In this document: in pieces, positions 52,123-57,937 of the stretch
How the letters are laid out: each line of letters begins with the position of its first letter
How positions within the stretch are numbered: the stretch's first letter is position 1
Source: a virus
Length of the DNA: 64,000 bases
Strand: one strand, 5' to 3'
Virus record (IMG/VR): IMGVR_UViG_3300029787_000002
Span: 1-64,000 of that record
Program-made: the position numbers and the translations under genes
The notes under the pieces: generated by a model
The model's input: only the letters and a program-made list of their open reading frames with translations
Databases searched by the model: none
Told to the model about the DNA's origin: nothing

Positions 52123-52541
52123 GTGAAGGTAATGAAGTCCAATGGACTAAAGAGAATATGATTGAAGTGAACCTCAAGGAACCTGACGATTTCTTGAAAG
52201 TTCGCGAAACACTTACCCGTATTGGAGTTGCCTCCCGTAAGGAAAAGAAACTGTATCAGTCCTGCCACATTCTACATAAAAAAGGACAATACTATATCGT
52301 ACATTTTAAAGAACTATTTGCATTAGACGGAAAGAAAGCAAACTTATCAGACAACGATGTACAAAGACGAAACAGAATAATCAAACTATTATCTGATTGG
52401 GGTCTAGTCGAGATTGTAAAGGAAGACAGCATTAAAGGTGTAGCACCACTAAGTCAAATCAAAGTTATTGCATACAAAGAAAAGGGGGACTGGACACTAG
52501 AGTCTAAATACAATATCGGAAAGAAACGCACTACAGAATGA
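52119..52541 (+). CDS. regA: translational repressor RegA
   Basis: DDFLKVRETLTRIG; LYQSCHILHK.G.YYIVHFKELF. Confidence 0.96.
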   Translation: MSEGNEVQWTKENMIEVNLKEPDDFLKVRETLTRIGVASRKEKKLYQSCHILHKKGQYYIVHFKELFALDGKKANLSDNDVQRRNRIIKLLSDWGLVEIVKEDSIKGVAPLSQIKVIAYKEKGDWTLESKYNIGKKRTTE

Positions 52542-53188
52542 GCGACTTTAATTATCATGTCCAGTGGTTTAAAAGTCCTGGATACCTACTAGCAGAGGTT
52601 CCCCCTGCAGTAGTTGAAGAATTACAGCATAGCATCAACACAGTCTCTAAGACCCCTGAGACGGACGCTAGAGGCATTCTGAGAGGGCATATAGAAGAAG
52701 AGTGGACTTTACCCCTATCTAAGGAGATAAGTGGGTTCACTCGCTGCCTTTCATACGAATATATCAAGCAGTTTGGTTTCCAACCTGCTATGGGTGTAGC
52801 AGAGACGATGAGAGAAATCAATGAGTGTGACTTTAAACTACAAAGACTTTGGGTAAACTTTCAAAGTAAATACGACTTCAACCCTCTGCATATACACAGT
52901 GGGTTATTTTCGTTTGTGATTTGGGTACAAGTTCCATACGACCTAGAAGAAGAGAGAAGGAGATATAAGACAAATGGAAATGAGACTGCAGCATTCATGT
53001 TCCAGTACAACACAGCACTAGGTGGACTAGATACAGAATACCTTTACATAGATAAAACTTGGGAATGGAAGATAGCATTCTTCCCTGCACGCCTTAATCA
53101 CGGTGTTAATCCGTTTTATACTACAGATGATCACCGCATCTCAATAAGTGGAAATCTTTATGTTATAGATAATAATACAATAGAATAA
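52538..53188 (+). CDS. putative 2OG-Fe(II) oxygenase
   Basis: WVNFQ...FNPLHIH.G.FSFV; FFPA.L.H.V.P; RISISGN. Confidence 0.8.
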   Translation: MSDFNYHVQWFKSPGYLLAEVPPAVVEELQHSINTVSKTPETDARGILRGHIEEEWTLPLSKEISGFTRCLSYEYIKQFGFQPAMGVAETMREINECDFKLQRLWVNFQSKYDFNPLHIHSGLFSFVIWVQVPYDLEEERRRYKTNGNETAAFMFQYNTALGGLDTEYLYIDKTWEWKIAFFPARLNHGVNPFYTTDDHRISISGNLYVIDNNTIE

Positions 53189-53193
53189 TTATC

Positions 53194-53607
53194 ATGGCAG
53201 ATGCAGTTAAAAAAGAAGACCCTAAGAAGGGTATCTTAGGTAAACTTAAAGAAGCAGCAGAGGATAAAGAGGAGCAACTTGCTATCCTTTCTACCTTTGT
53301 GCGACTTGGAATTTTGATTTGGTCTGGTGGAATCTTAACATTAGCGTATGTTGATCTACCACCTGCATTGAAAATTCCTAAACAGGACATGGATCCAACT
53401 TTCATAGCTTCGGTCTTCACAGGAGTCGTAGCTACCTTCGGTGTCCAAGCGGGAGGTAAGAAAAAGAATGGTGATGGTGGTGGTAGTGCAAACATATCTA
53501 AAAAAGATATGGAGTTTCTTATCGCTAAGGCATCAGAGACTGCTCCTGCTCAAACTATAAGGATCGAACAAGGTCCTGTAAAAATTGTCCCTTCTGATAC
53601 TAAGTAA
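53194..53607 (+). CDS. two-TM membrane protein
   Basis: VRLGILIWSGGILTLAYV and DPTFIASVFTGVVATFGV. Confidence 0.75.
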   Translation: MADAVKKEDPKKGILGKLKEAAEDKEEQLAILSTFVRLGILIWSGGILTLAYVDLPPALKIPKQDMDPTFIASVFTGVVATFGVQAGGKKKNGDGGGSANISKKDMEFLIAKASETAPAQTIRIEQGPVKIVPSDTK

Positions 53608-53612
53608 TCATC

Positions 53613-53849
53613 ATGCAAAAAATTATTAACGTTCTTGCCCTCGCATCATTCACTGTTTCTATTTCCGCTGTTGGTGGTGCTGTGTATGTGTATACACAGA
53701 AAGATGCCATCATCGAAGATCTAAAAGAGAAAGCGTTAGGTTCTTTAGGTGCAGGAATCTCTTCAGCACTCCCTAATGTAGTCGAAGGTATCATGCCTGA
53801 GACAACAGGACCTGCTATCCCAGATGTTAAATTGCCTTCAATGCCATGA
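53613..53849 (+). CDS. small N-terminally anchored membrane protein
   Basis: IINVLALASFTVSISAVGGAVYVY; Pro-rich tail. Confidence 0.7.
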   Translation: MQKIINVLALASFTVSISAVGGAVYVYTQKDAIIEDLKEKALGSLGAGISSALPNVVEGIMPETTGPAIPDVKLPSMP

Positions 53850-54460
53850 ACACTAAATGGATATCAATCGGTATAATCGGTAGTTTGTTTGCTGCTTCTC
53901 ATATCGGTATGATTGGTATGCTTGCAACTAGAAATGGTTCCAAACTACCTGAGTTAAACATGCCTGTAGGACCTTATACTTCTTATGTTGCTACTGCAGA
54001 CGAAGATGGGTATAAGATCAGTTACAGTGCCAATGATCCTAAGACGATGCACATCACTAAGGACATTGTGAAACCTTCTGGGTTTCTCGGATTCGGGAAA
54101 ACCAAGACACAAGTTGTTGAAGAGTATGTCATGGACGGATCAACCAATCAAGGTGGACCTGTATCTAATGCTCGCTCATGGCAAGATGGTAGTGCAGGAG
54201 GTAAATCAGGAATCTCAAAAAAGTCTGTCGCGTGTATCGAGGCGGTCGGTGGTGGCAAGCAAACGGGACGTCTTGTCGGTACTAGTGTAGGTGCTGCTGT
54301 TGCTCCTGCTGTCACTGGAATCCCATTTGTTGGTTGGTTAGCAGCAGGTTGGATTGCTATGTTCGGTGGAGAACAAGGTTCAGAGATAGGTGGTAATATG
54401 GTTAATGATCTTAATGATGCATGTGAGGTAACTGAAGATGTCGGAGATACCAACGATTAG
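53846..54460 (+). CDS. membrane protein with C-terminal glycine zipper
   Basis: N-term TM; GRLVGTSVGAA...IPFVGWLAAG...GSEIGG flanked by two Cys. Confidence 0.75.
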   Translation: MNTKWISIGIIGSLFAASHIGMIGMLATRNGSKLPELNMPVGPYTSYVATADEDGYKISYSANDPKTMHITKDIVKPSGFLGFGKTKTQVVEEYVMDGSTNQGGPVSNARSWQDGSAGGKSGISKKSVACIEAVGGGKQTGRLVGTSVGAAVAPAVTGIPFVGWLAAGWIAMFGGEQGSEIGGNMVNDLNDACEVTEDVGDTND

Positions 54461-55220
54461 GATTGACGGTGGTTCAATTAGAACCATCAATATCCGAAAC
54501 AATTTCATCAGTGATATACCGAAATGGTTAACATCGGATCCCCCTATGGCGATTCCGATATATCCTCCTGTCACTCAACAGATTGGTGTACCCATCATTG
54601 ACATTCCTGGATGTGTTGAGGCACATGAAAGTAGTGATAAGAATGATAATATTGTAGGTGACGATCCTAAAGGTGCGAAGATATTTTGTGATGCAGGTTT
54701 ACCTTCATTCAATCCTATTGATTACTCACCAGAACAGTTACAGTATGAAATGCAGGCACCAGTTCCACCTGTAGCACCTCCTCCAGATGATGTAGAAACT
54801 GATACTGATATACCTCCAGTCAAACCTCCACCTACTGAGTGCCCTGGACCTAATCAACCTAGAGTTGGTGACCTAACAGCAAGTGGAGATGAAAGAGTTA
54901 TTGGTCACGAACTAAGTGAAGATGGTAAAATCTGTGTAATATTATATGAAGATACAACTGCAGTTGAAAAATTTCTACCAACTGCAAATCAAGTTAGCAC
55001 TACTGCATCAATTGCTGTAGTAGCTACCGCTGCTGCTGCAGCAACACCATTATTATTGAGAGTTGTTAAACCTATAGTCAAGCAAATTATTAAAAAGGTT
55101 CAAAAGTTACTAGGTAAAGAACCTCGTCAACCTACTAGAATTGAAGTTAAGGCAAACGCGATCCGTCAAAAGAGAGGGTTACCTCCTTTAAAAGTGAAGC
55201 ATCCGAAGAAACCTCGTTAG
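54438..55220 (+). CDS. Pro/acidic-rich protein with C-terminal TM and basic tail
   Basis: Four Cys; ASIAVVATAAAAATPLLL then K/R-rich tail. Confidence 0.75.
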   Translation: MSEIPTIRIDGGSIRTINIRNNFISDIPKWLTSDPPMAIPIYPPVTQQIGVPIIDIPGCVEAHESSDKNDNIVGDDPKGAKIFCDAGLPSFNPIDYSPEQLQYEMQAPVPPVAPPPDDVETDTDIPPVKPPPTECPGPNQPRVGDLTASGDERVIGHELSEDGKICVILYEDTTAVEKFLPTANQVSTTASIAVVATAAAAATPLLLRVVKPIVKQIIKKVQKLLGKEPRQPTRIEVKANAIRQKRGLPPLKVKHPKKPR

Positions 55221-56016
55221 GTGTAATCTTATGAACGTGGGGTTTAATAGTATTAACACCTTGTACTACCACGTCAGCACACACAGAATAATAAGGTGAC
55301 TTTGGATGGAAGGATATACCCTCTTTCATTAATGAACCGCAATTTTTCAATCTCGCGATCTCAAAATCCAAGCGTTTATTAGCATTCATCTGATTCATCA
55401 ATGCGATGTTTGATGCTGCTGCTTCTTTACATAGTTTCTGCAGTTTCTTATCCATGGGGTTAGACCATGTAGCAGACACACCTATACTTAAATTATAATT
55501 ATCTTTCTGTCCTGTTCTTGTTGGAACAAAATATAAAATCTCTCCTGGATTATCGGGCACTCCATTATCATCTGCGTCTAACATATTGTAGACTGGAGAA
55601 TCCCAGTATTGTTCGTTTGGTTTTTGTGCTGATGCACTACCTGTAATGTATGGCGTGACATTCATAGTCGGTCCTTGACATTGAATGCCATTACCATAAG
55701 TGTTAGTTATATATGGACCTTGTAAAACCTGAATAGCTTGATTGGTCACTGAGCCTGAACTATTCGCAACGGGAGCAGCAGTTGCACTTACACCACCAAC
55801 AGTCTCTGCGTTAACAGAAGGCATAAACCCAGTCATAGCAAGGGATGTTGCTACTGGGAGAAGATACTTGTGGTATCTGTTACGCTTGTAACCTCGGTAG
55901 TCCTCTGGATTACCGTGTGATTTGAAAGACCTGGGGATTGATAGGTCTCTGTGAACTGAAACGCTGCCCCTGGTGTTGTCTGTGTGAACGTTGGTTTCGT
56001 TCCTATTCCTGTCCAT
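55147..56016 (-). CDS. exported beta-strand/Cys protein (possible outer-membrane oligomer)
   Basis: AAGGAG before ATG 56016; hydrophobic/signal segment ending VNA-E; NYNLSIGVSATWSNP strand; four Cys. Confidence 0.7.
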   Translation of the reverse strand: MDRNRNETNVHTDNTRGSVSVHRDLSIPRSFKSHGNPEDYRGYKRNRYHKYLLPVATSLAMTGFMPSVNAETVGGVSATAAPVANSSGSVTNQAIQVLQGPYITNTYGNGIQCQGPTMNVTPYITGSASAQKPNEQYWDSPVYNMLDADDNGVPDNPGEILYFVPTRTGQKDNYNLSIGVSATWSNPMDKKLQKLCKEAAASNIALMNQMNANKRLDFEIARLKNCGSLMKEGISFHPKSPYYSVCADVVVQGVNTIKPHVHKITPNEVSSDASLLKEVTLSFDGSRLP

Positions 56017-56303
56017 GTCGAAGTCACTCCTTCAATAATTACGTTTGATTTCTCAGTGGTAGGGGATAGATTACCACTTGCAGATACGCCTGAACCAGTT
56101 ACCGAAAATTGATACCCAGTATTGTAGTCCATCGAATTGATGGTTTCTGTCACTTTTGATGTCGTTTCCGTGTGAGAAGTCATTGATCCCTGTTGGAAAT
56201 TTGGCACCACGGGGACAGCAATCGCAGGCGTAGTACTTACCAAAGTAATAACCGCACCTAGGACATATGTCCTCCTTGCTAATATATATGAAAGGTTCTG
56301 CAT
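55851..56303 (-). CDS. exported Thr-rich beta protein
   Basis: Signal peptide ending AIA-VPVVPNF; GGAG SD. Confidence 0.75.
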   Translation of the reverse strand: MQNLSYILARRTYVLGAVITLVSTTPAIAVPVVPNFQQGSMTSHTETTSKVTETINSMDYNTGYQFSVTGSGVSASGNLSPTTEKSNVIIEGVTSTWTGIGTKPTFTQTTPGAAFQFTETYQSPGLSNHTVIQRTTEVTSVTDTTSIFSQ

Positions 56304-56325
56304 GGTAATCTTTCTCCACTAAACT

Positions 56326-56874
56326 TTAGTCAAAGACAGAGATTTCACTAACAAATTGACCAGTAGTTGTAGTACCTGCTAGACCTGTACCTGTTAGAGT
56401 AACAGCGTGTCCGTTGGTAACAGTACCTGGTGCATTAGCAGACGCTGATACACTACCTGCAGTGTAGTGAACTTGATTACCAAACGTTGCTTCATCAGCA
56501 CCTGATCCTCCAACATCACCTTGTGTGAATGACTGACTGAAATTGAATGATCCTGAACATGCTAGGTCACTTCCTGAACTTGATCCTGTGCATCCATTTT
56601 GAACACCAGTAATTGCTCCAACTGTTCCAACACCCGTAGTAGCACTATAGGAGTTAATGCCAATACCACCATCTACAGCACTACCACCTGTTGGTGTATG
56701 TGTTGTGACTACATTCGTACCAGAGATTGAGAAAGCATTACCAACTCTATTGTAAGATTTGTACCCTGCTTCCACCGTATGTTGTAAACTAGACTGATGT
56801 TTACTAACTATTCCACCCGCATGAGCAGGAATTCCTGCCATGAGTAACATAACCAGAGGTAAAATTTTCTTCAT
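56326..56874 (-). CDS. exported Gly/Ser/Thr-rich beta protein
   Basis: Sec signal MKKILPLVMLLMAGIPAHA. Confidence 0.8.
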   Translation of the reverse strand: MKKILPLVMLLMAGIPAHAGGIVSKHQSSLQHTVEAGYKSYNRVGNAFSISGTNVVTTHTPTGGSAVDGGIGINSYSATTGVGTVGAITGVQNGCTGSSSGSDLACSGSFNFSQSFTQGDVGGSGADEATFGNQVHYTAGSVSASANAPGTVTNGHAVTLTGTGLAGTTTTGQFVSEISVFD

Positions 56875-56979
56875 TTTTACTCATGATTGAGATCTACCAC
56901 TATATAGGTTAGGTATTTCCTACAAAAGGGTTCGGACTGTACACTATCAGTTAGGGACTGGAATGTAGTTAAATATAAC

Positions 56980-57026
56980 TGTGATGCTTCGGGTCACACA
57001 TTCACACTCGCTTAATAAGGAGCACT
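56980..57026 (+). promoter_or_regulatory. two-hairpin 5' UTR, ROSE-like RNA thermometer candidate
   Basis: cUUCGg hairpin, then CUCGCUU-AAU-AAGGAG pairing the SD with a bulged G. Confidence 0.55.
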
Positions 57027-57499: not shown

Positions 57500-57577
57500 A
57501 AAACTATGGGCAACTGTGCTATATTACATAGGTGTTCTGATATACCAGAATACCTTGTAAATTTACACAAAAAACAA

Positions 57578-57937
57578 ATGAAAGCATTCGCAGTTGCCCT
57601 GCTCGGTTTGGCGATCTCCGCCCCCGTCATGGCAGGTCCATACGTTGAGTCCAAACACGAGTTCAAAGGGACTGATGAAGACTACAGTAAGGCAGTCCAC
57701 CAAGGACGTGTCGGTTATTCAACCAAGTCAGGTCGTTTCTCTCCATATATTGAAGGTGGTTTTGGTGTTTCCGTTCCTGAGAGTGGGGATAATGAAACAT
57801 TCAAAGTTATTGAAGTTGGTAGTAAAGTAAAGATCACTGACAAGTTCGGTGCTTATGGTAAGTGGGAGAACAAATTCCAAGATAGCGATGACACTCGCGA
57901 TTGGAAGTTTGAAGTTGGCACCAAGTACAAATTCTAA
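57578..57937 (+). CDS. small outer-membrane beta-barrel-like protein associated with pstS
   Basis: Signal peptide ..APVMA-GPYVE; alternating strands; C-terminal GTKYKF. Confidence 0.75.
   Translation: MKAFAVALLGLAISAPVMAGPYVESKHEFKGTDEDYSKAVHQGRVGYSTKSGRFSPYIEGGFGVSVPESGDNETFKVIEVGSKVKITDKFGAYGKWENKFQDSDDTRDWKFEVGTKYKF

Follow-up and report, generated by a model that had tools for sequence, protein, structure and literature searches.

What do seven small membrane and exported proteins, encoded side by side, do for a T4-like phage of marine cyanobacteria? This question is raised by a gene cluster, g1 to g7, at positions 53194-56874 of the window, by which we mean the whole stretch of 64,000 nucleotides analysed here (positions 1 to 64,000 of IMG/VR virus record IMGVR_UViG_3300029787_000002). 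The genome that hosts the window is that of a T4-like cyanomyovirus of 172.9 kb, estimated to be 99% complete. Its closest isolate, Prochlorococcus phage P-RSM1 (82.5% nucleotide identity across 91% of the region), has all seven genes in identical order between a 2-oxoglutarate (2OG)-Fe(II) oxygenase gene and hsp20, six of them annotated as hypothetical and one as "plasmid stability". Our analysis strongly indicates that six of the seven genes, all but g3, form a unit of inheritance among unrelated phages that infect marine picocyanobacteria.

The cluster itself is not newly discovered, having been published in 2010 as a cassette of hypothetical proteins. Sullivan et al. (PMC3037559) described T4-GC218, 219, 234, 235 and 237 plus a 'plasmid stability' gene (gp161 to about gp167 in Syn9) in 15 of 16 cyanomyoviruses, S-PM2 being the one without, at variable genome positions; they proposed that the clustering of the genes has functional reasons, and suggested that the 'plasmid stability' gene mobilises the cassette. 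We confirmed by orthology and gene order that g1 to g7 are members of this cassette (T4-GC218/414/219/234/235/236/237): using megablast, g5-g7 match P-SSM4 139958-141352 and g1-g2 match P-HM2 164662-165059, and the T4-GC235-237 and 218/414 rows of the Sullivan table carry those same coordinates. The gene set of 2010 is therefore identical to that of the window, but it was presented without topology, structure, paralogy, partners or timing, and was known from T4-like phages only. Among the new findings here is the six-gene linkage in about 200 contigs of three distant lineages, together with forms outside the T4-like phages.

Linkage of the cassette genes across phage lineages

All seven open reading frames (ORFs) proposed in the initial annotation were found at their positions, and as all seven products match conserved phage families in PHROG (E 2.5e-28 to 1.8e-136), they are real genes and not chance ORFs. 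g1 to g4 are encoded on the plus strand and g5 to g7 on the minus strand, which is indeed rarely used in the window, these three being the only plausible minus-strand genes among the large ORFs. It had also been proposed that every gene from the oxygenase to hsp20 encodes a membrane or exported protein, and hydropathy analysis agreed, with the signal peptides of relatives completing the case for g5. Searches of NCBIfam, PADLOC and Pfam (E up to 10) gave no match for g2, g3, g4, g5 or g7.

Using single divergent members as queries, we fetched about 200 viral contigs around three divergent types of g5, and labelled the ORFs of these contigs with iterated profiles made from the window proteins. 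The g5 family is large: 7962 of 8000 scored candidates were related, forming 457 clusters at 50% identity in ocean metagenomes. In the T4-like clade A, the gene order is that of the window, with g7, g6 and g5 facing g4, g3, g2 and g1, and in clades B and C it is g1, g7, g6 and g5 facing g4 and g2, with Phage_OMP, an outer-membrane protein (OMP) gene, next in clade B. Genes were counted in loci with full flanks only. Clade A (14 loci) has g3, g4, g6 and g7 in every locus and g1 and g2 in 13, without any Phage_OMP within the flanks used; clade B has g1, g2, g4, g6, g7 and Phage_OMP in all of its 25 loci and g3 in none; the 13 loci of clade C all carry g1, g2, g4, g6 and g7, and neither g3 nor Phage_OMP was found in them.

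Protein identity among the three lineages is 30-45%, and the set has been kept together although g1 has left the g4 arm to lead the g7 operon and g4 is inverted in seven clade A loci. g2 stands next to g4 in all three clades, in clades B and C g1 is the first gene of the g7-g6-g5 operon, which it overlaps by 4 nt, and in clade B 4-nt overlaps join all of g1-g7-g6-g5. The expected co-occurrence of the genes was thus found, in distant phage lineages, but the unit is not one of seven genes, g3 being confined to the T4-like clade. The tail-to-tail overlap of g4 and g5, described as joining two operons, is real in the window (74 nt, 55147-55220) and is not conserved across clades: it measures 53-83 nt in clade B, is missing from most of clade C, and g4 is turned round in the seven clade A loci mentioned above.

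A steadier companion of the cassette than g3 is the Phage_OMP gene beside hsp20 (57506-57937, plus strand, just outside the cassette and after hsp20), which encodes a half-barrel outer-membrane protein that has a signal peptide and ends in an aromatic residue (PF24653, formerly DUF680, E 1.1e-38), and which adjoins the cassette also in uvMED AP013546. The genome of the window has two such genes, this one and another outside the window (G000 89979-90347). Of the genome columns in the Sullivan table, the one without entries for the cassette has none for DUF680 either; we take it to be S-PM2, named in the text of that paper as the phage without the cassette.

Such linkage makes it very improbable that the locus is a hot spot of unrelated small membrane-protein morons, or of minor virion components, with no common function. 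The cassette does change position among cyanomyoviruses (PMC3037559) and g3 comes and goes, as this explanation would have it, but six families stay together in 13-14 of 14, 25 of 25 and 13 of 13 complete loci at 30-45% protein identity, translation of g5 is coupled to that of g6, and binding between g6 and g7 is predicted (see below). The virion alternative is opposed by cleavable signal peptides and by the lack of any structural mark in virion proteomes: rows 218, 219 and 234-237 of the Sullivan table are unmarked, unlike rows 344, 346 and 399-403, and the cassette proteins are absent from the part of Sullivan Table S8 covered here. These unmarked rows and the conserved signal peptides bear out the earlier view that the products are not ordinary virion components.

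Carriers of the cassette outside clade A are varied. Contigs of clades B and C encode a prim-pol/helicase or a family A DNA polymerase (PolA), and megablast of their loci against isolates gave no match. The best isolate-like match of clade B is uvMED AP013546, a complete 42-kb member of the Autographiviridae (Oinezvirus) with a T7-type RNA polymerase, which carries the whole set. The cassette is also present in Prochlorococcus phage MED4-117 (38.8 kb, with tail fiber J and exonuclease VIII), and relatives of g5 were found in S-TIM5 and in the cultured T7-like cyanopodoviruses S-TIP37, P-GSP1, S-RIP2, SS120-1, P-SSP3 and P-SSP10. In S-TIP37 the set is reduced to a short g4-like protein, one DUF6322 gene (g6), a g5 with overprinted leader, and a protein with a transmembrane (TM) segment plus a coiled coil. 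Altogether, about 440 of 50,697 phage records have a g5 relative, every one of them cyanophage or marine.

The search for copies in host islands, suggested at the outset, was also successful. Three freshwater picocyanobacterial metagenome-assembled genomes (MAGs) carry g7-g6-g5 intact in chromosomal islands, at contig ends of low GC (0.52-0.61), the rest of these chromosomal contigs having a GC of about 0.70 and housekeeping neighbours (L214:1-4500, L215:1-4500), and in at least one MAG (L215) a Pro-rich, C-anchored protein occupies the place of g4. As only 2 of 301 sampled genomes of the picocyanobacterial family contain a g5 relative, the host copies look like sporadic island acquisitions of the exported trio.

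The exported trio and the membrane arm

Sequence features strongly indicate that g5, g6 and g7 are Sec-type exported proteins, alignments of all three showing conserved signal peptides of the classical kind with AxA sites. g6 (gp166 type, T4-GC236; 55851-56303, minus strand) encodes a 150-aa protein with a signal-peptide cut at AIA|V (alignments A2 and A4) that passes the gathering score of Pfam DUF6322 (PF19847, E 3e-41; 140.4 bits against a cut-off of 30.6), and g7 (T4-GC237; 56326-56874, minus strand; phrog_564, E 2e-44) encodes a Gly/Ser/Thr-rich protein of 182 aa cut at AHA|G. g7 has no direct match to the PF19847 model, but g6 and g7 are paralogues according to hhalign (alignment A2 against the g7 alignment A3, probability 96.3%, E 1.7e-9), and Atlas features of g7 point to DUF6322 clusters. 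In a precomputed contig annotation, g7-type proteins (L040:1866-2354 and other A3 members) are labelled PF19847; a fresh hmmscan of the same proteins against Pfam-A gave nothing at E 0.01 or better, and the paralogy is for this reason rested on hhalign and not on Pfam.

Neither protein ends with the aromatic residue that signals an OMP (g6 ends in ...FSQ, g7 in ...VFD, and its relatives in ...TI-K; Phage_OMP ends in ...YKF), and no lipobox was found in any cassette protein, so that we place g6 and g7 in the periplasm and not in the outer membrane. The AlphaFold2 (AF2) model of mature g6 has a mean predicted local distance difference test (pLDDT) value of 82.7, and in it strands 9-32 and 96-120, from the two chain ends, form a two-stranded ribbon of about 24 residues per strand that bears a small beta domain. 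Long terminal strands had been read from the sequence of two small beta-rich proteins, and the model upholds them. An Atlas search with g6 returned its own family only, and its fold matches are weak, all to long-hairpin pore or tube formers: the best Foldseek E is 2.2e-3, and VIA-align gave lysenin (Z 4.4, root-mean-square deviation 5.6 A over 52 residues), anthrax protective antigen (PA; Z 3.5), iota Ib (Z 3.2) and also the phi29 collar. The likeness of the modelled g6 to subunits of long-hairpin oligomers is a shared arrangement and not evidence of homology.

A complex between the small beta-rich proteins, which had been anticipated, was predicted for g6 and g7 with controls passed: the median score was 0.63 against 0.00 for the best control (with partner pLDDT no lower than 50 and a reported run agreement of at least 0%), although one of the three runs scored 0.00, which counts against the pairing. 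Among solved complexes, 58 of 80 attained the mark of 0.63, as did 2 of 110 mismatched pairs; these figures are only approximate, since we supplied alignments of our own. The predicted interface runs strand to strand and edge to edge (g6 residues 85-92 with g7 residues 46-53), with g6 contributing its C-terminal strand in the model and g7 its N-terminal one. As a prediction, this supports binding without showing it.

Two paralogous Thr/Ser/Gly-rich secreted subunits with predicted strand pairing would also suit a secreted surface fibre or adhesin like curli or spore appendages, with g6 and g7 as major and minor subunits and g5 as the export pore. Weak fold rows do include spore appendage and ENA fibres (Z 2.0-2.4), and marine pelagimyophages carry CsgG/CsgF (PMC9004378). 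These fibre matches are, however, within noise; Pfam gave no sign of a known export pore such as CsgG, an usher or a sortase, g5 did not match any known channel, and there are neither amyloid repeats nor a lipobox, so that we regard such a fibre as highly unlikely.

g5 (gp165 type, T4-GC235; 55147-56016, minus strand; phrog_848, E 1.8e-136) encodes a protein of 289 aa, the export of which is deduced from its family. In the window, a weaker signal-like segment with a VNA|E site follows a basic leader of about 50 aa, but distant relatives start directly with a classical signal peptide and AxA site (alignment A1), and the family is on these grounds considered to be exported. In the same alignment, four Cys of the mature domain are invariant, and the domain also contains a PHxH motif.

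The leader owes its existence to the way in which g5 overlaps g6. No start codon is found near the g5 signal segment in the window or in clades A and C, and the g5 ATG lies 166-178 nt inside g6 in all 34 loci of clade A and in 69 of the 70 of clade C, while in clade B g5 begins with an ATGA overlap at the g6 stop (79 of 80 loci). The internal ATG is built on the codon that precedes an invariant Trp of g6: 86 of the 87 unique sequences from clades A and C have ACA as this codon, but only 7 of 75 from clade B have one that ends in A. Moreover, the g5 frame is open throughout the overlap in 77 of 77 unique overlaps, compared with 1.5% (clade C) to 9% (clade A) of synonymous shuffles. By this sequence evidence, the g5 start codon and the open overlap frame are under selection, and because the start is conserved and the alternative frame kept open, the leader of about 50 aa is considered to be overprinted on g6. 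In the window the overlap spans 55851-56016, where about 55 codons of g5 that precede its signal peptide share their DNA with the conserved C-terminal half of DUF6322. Translational coupling and delayed export are two possible purposes of the leader. A programmed frameshift from g6 into g5 was considered and dropped, the ATG inside g6 being conserved exactly where it is needed. The g6/g5 pair is thus a clean case of overprinting, with a start on an invariant-Trp site kept by selection.

The AF2 model of mature g5, a protein likened at the outset to oligomeric outer-membrane channels (pLDDT 73, predicted template modelling score 0.42), contains beta hairpins (34-115) followed by a helix of 42 residues (120-161). 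Against the PDB, Foldseek gave no match at E 1e-3 or better, VIA-align matched the long helix alone (Z at most 5.1), and only cyanophage relatives were found in BFVD. An MCE-like (MlaD/PqiB) reading of the beta domain plus long helix was dropped, the fold being absent from both the Foldseek and the VIA-align results; so was a LAS-type (HxH) metallopeptidase suggested by PHxH, for which there is no conserved upstream His-Asp pair, in a region that is poorly modelled.

On the other arm, g1, g2 and g4, plus g3 in the T4-like phages, are strongly indicated by their hydropathy to be small inner-membrane proteins. g1 (Syn9 gp161 type, T4-GC218; 53194-53607, plus strand; phrog_2714) is a protein of 137 aa with two TM segments (29-47 and 66-88 by Kyte-Doolittle) and charged N- and C-terminal tails, and passes the DUF6450 (PF20048) gathering score over residues 23-90 (122.4 bits against a cut-off of 25, E 6.8e-36); we found no paper that mentions DUF6450 or DUF6322. 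g2 (gp162 type, T4-GC414; 53613-53849, plus strand; phrog_568, E 2.5e-28) has 78 aa and one N-terminal TM (4-22 by Kyte-Doolittle). We found no experimental basis for its name of 'plasmid stability', and in place of the mobiliser suggested by Sullivan et al. we see in it simply a one-TM member of the cassette. Both g1 and g2 are holin-like in predicted size and topology, which is not diagnostic. g3 (gp163 type, T4-GC219; 53846-54460, plus strand; 204 aa; phrog_605, E 1.2e-69) combines an N-terminal TM, a soluble part with two Cys and a hydrophobic C-terminal segment resembling a Gly zipper.

g4 (gp164 type, T4-GC234; 54438-55220, plus strand, convergent with g5; phrog_570, E 6.9e-87) is a Pro-rich protein of 260 aa (13.8% Pro) with an N-terminal domain of 190 residues without signal peptide, and with a C-terminal TM followed by a basic Lys/Arg tail according to hydropathy. 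Cys 59, 84, 135 and 166 are invariant in its alignment (A5), as the TM segment and the Lys-rich tail are conserved, and from the positive-inside rule the tail is predicted to be cytoplasmic and the Cys-bearing Pro-rich domain periplasmic. Its look-alikes in the Atlas are viral hypothetical proteins only. Three unrelated contexts have a PF13759 2OG-Fe(II) oxygenase gene within the cassette or adjacent to it, namely the window (52538-53188), a clade C contig (L183:7793-8347) and S-TIP37 (gp43, L221:3857-4600); the enzyme could modify the Pro-rich g4, or this could be a coincidence, cyanophages carrying several such genes.

Expression, genomic setting and proposed role

When might these genes be expressed? 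Several clade A relatives have TATAAATA or CTAAATA 25-45 nt before the g7 start, and these sequences are the core of T4-type late promoters. The reduced cassette of S-TIP37 has the tail fibres on one side and the small terminase subunit on the other, the slot that in T7 is occupied by the holin 17.5 and the spanins 18.5/18.7. In a Pacific metatranscriptome (PMC7238727 Table S1), the orthologues g165 and g163 are periodically transcribed and listed between g8 and g21-g23, which speaks for late timing on the assumption that this list is ordered by peak time. Taken together, the late-type promoters of relatives, the field transcripts and the T7 lysis slot in S-TIP37 suggest that the cassette is expressed late. 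A scan for sigma-70 promoters and terminators gave no excess over shuffled sequence.

The neighbours of the cassette also point towards lysis. In clade B, a membrane-anchored Peptidase_C39_2-like (papain-like) protein is found by the cassette in 67 of 80 loci and flanks g1 together with a TM plus coiled-coil protein; together they are candidate endolysin and spanin- or holin-like partners. The anchor of the peptidase-like protein is N-terminal and hydrophobic (L082:4632-5351), and a TM plus coiled-coil protein of 84 aa stands next to the cassette both in clade B (L082:5550-5804) and in S-TIP37 (L221:6446-6700). A lysis role for the cassette would also agree with our searches of the 99% complete genome of the window, which gave no PF00959 lysozyme, PF13529 C39-like peptidase or other recognised lysis gene.

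Given the linkage, the export signals, the paralogy and the predicted pairing, the cassette products probably share an envelope complex. In view of the late-type promoters, the slot shared with T7 lysis genes and the neighbouring peptidase and coiled-coil proteins, we tentatively favour the view that this complex helps to breach the host envelope at lysis, as a lysis accessory working like a holin/spanin set. Repeated g6-g7 pairing in the periplasm would produce a hetero-oligomer in the form of a beta sheet, ring or tube, which g5, translationally coupled to g6 and probably disulfide-braced, would join; g1, g2 and g4 would anchor or control the assembly from the inner membrane, and the half-barrel of Phage_OMP might be an outer-membrane partner. 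With its genes expressed late, the assembly would target the peptidoglycan and outer-membrane layers as infection ends, and would be built from parts unrelated to holins and spanins. Its most specific form, a two-subunit g6/g7 tube or ring in the periplasm that is capped or controlled by disulfide-braced g5, tethered by the small inner-membrane proteins, exchanged by picocyanobacterial phages of every morphotype and replacing spanins, is speculative and rather improbable as a whole; if it were true, the genes of this tube machine would be the long-missing lysis genes of marine cyanophages. To our knowledge, marine cyanophages have so far yielded neither a holin nor a spanin, and our searches detected none in the genome of the window.

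Several observations weigh against a role in lysis. The divergent control region between g7 and hsp20 (56875-57026) has, about 26 nt before the g7 start of the window, CCTATATAG in place of the canonical late motif, and ATAAATA is absent from the window between 53 and 57 kb. The upstream element that does occur there, GTACAG(N)CCGAAC...TTTTGTAGGAAATACC...CCTATATAG, is conserved in the closest relatives (L002, L008 and L035). g1-g4 directly follow replication genes without a gap and may be co-transcribed with them, and the timing read from the field transcripts depends on the presumed order of the published list. A lipobox, a type II TM plus coiled-coil protein and an endolysin are all absent from the window. 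We found no experiment on any cassette member in the literature. Finally, S-PM2 is a lytic phage without the whole cassette (PMC3037559), and the cassette is therefore not a universal lysis machinery of cyanophages.

The absence from S-PM2, the intact host-island copies and the proximity to tail fibres keep alive another explanation, superinfection exclusion or receptor masking, in which the exported proteins and Phage_OMP would remodel the infected envelope and block adsorption or injection by other cyanophages or by the phage's own progeny. Hosts that captured the exported trio would then gain resistance, and the island copies indeed fit a harmless or protective function more readily than a lysis effector, a further point against the lysis role. 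A cassette that is dispensable, mobile and common to phages alike in host only would also be expected of an exclusion system. The cassette is near tail-fibre genes in MED4-117, uvMED and S-TIP37, as cor, llp and lom are in coliphages, and positions after the tail fibres, even if used for lysis in T7, also host receptor-blocking or moron genes such as lambda lom and phi80 cor. Receptor interference has moreover been proposed for phage OMPs in a 2026 preprint (10.64898/2026.10.24.761521). On the other hand, none of the proteins matched a PADLOC model and the host copies are rare (2 of 301 family genomes). Known exclusion systems consist of one or two proteins made early, as opposed to the six linked genes with late-type promoters described here. 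We consider exclusion to be the main rival of the lysis reading, possible but less likely.

The genes that follow the cassette in the window and in P-RSM1 (hsp20, Phage_OMP and pstS) could in turn suggest a trans-envelope solute conduit, in which the cassette, Phage_OMP and PstS would form an uptake path, for example for phosphate, during infection, and the same preprint (10.64898/2026.10.24.761521) notes Phage_OMP in phosphate-acquisition contexts. However, pstS is not found near the podovirus, MED4-117 and clade C versions, many cassette-carrying cyanomyoviruses have no pstS at all (Sullivan table rows 235 and 243), and late timing suits nutrient acquisition poorly, all of which leaves this conduit with little probability.

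Whether it serves lysis or exclusion, this conserved, exported and probably late set is shared by cyanophages of myo-, podo- and sipho-type, and no better candidate for a function at the host envelope is available; nearly all sequenced T4-like cyanophages carry it. S-TIP37 is cultured and can be engineered, and its reduced cassette makes the question of function directly testable.

Comparison with known systems

The tests that we ran did not assign the cassette to any known lysis, curli, pore-forming-toxin or defence family. The lysis cassettes of lambda (S/R/Rz/Rz1) and T7 (gp17.5 plus gp18.5/18.7) resemble it in several traits: TM proteins of holin size (g1 and g2), a Pro-rich, Cys-containing protein predicted to span the periplasm (g4), late-type promoters, a T7-like genome slot, and overlapping or embedded genes, the g5 start lying inside g6 as Rz1 lies inside Rz. 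By contrast, they have no sequence or fold relation to the cassette and no counterpart of its core of three soluble exported proteins, the window has no endolysin or lipoprotein signal, and the cassette is dispensable in S-PM2. Compared with o-spanins, g5, g6, g7 and Phage_OMP have no Cys in or just after their signal peptides; compared with i-spanins, g4 is anchored by a C-terminal and not an N-terminal TM and is Pro-rich and not a coiled coil, while i-spanin-like TM plus coiled-coil proteins flank the cassette in clade B and S-TIP37 and not in the window. Judged as holins, g1 has two TM segments with charged tails and g2 has one, with no adjacent endolysin in the window.

Small domains with a very long beta hairpin, weakly like the g6 model, are found in leukocidins, lysenin, aerolysin, PA, iota Ib and the collar or tail-knob tubes of phi29, P68 and Andhra, and leukocidins in addition place two paralogous subunits side by side, like the predicted g6-g7 pair. 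In these pore formers it is an internal hairpin that joins neighbours into a barrel, whereas the modelled ribbon of g6 comes from the two chain termini; the faces of this ribbon are polar (Thr/Ser), and an amphipathic membrane tip is not evident in the sequence.

The CsgG/CsgF genes of pelagimyophages and phage Melnitz (PMC9004378) are likewise envelope-pore genes in marine T4-like phages, for which a role in lysis timing was proposed from context, but they belong to different hosts and proteins and have no Pfam or fold similarity to the cassette. None of the seven proteins matched CsgG (PF03783) in Pfam at E up to 10, and the g6 model is a ribbon plus domain and not a beta solenoid as in curli-type subunits. 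T4 Imm/Sp, T5 Llp and lambda Lom are also small phage envelope proteins that act on the infected cell, and include an OMP, but they are encoded by one or two genes, are made early or in lysogens, and have no sequence relation to the cassette.

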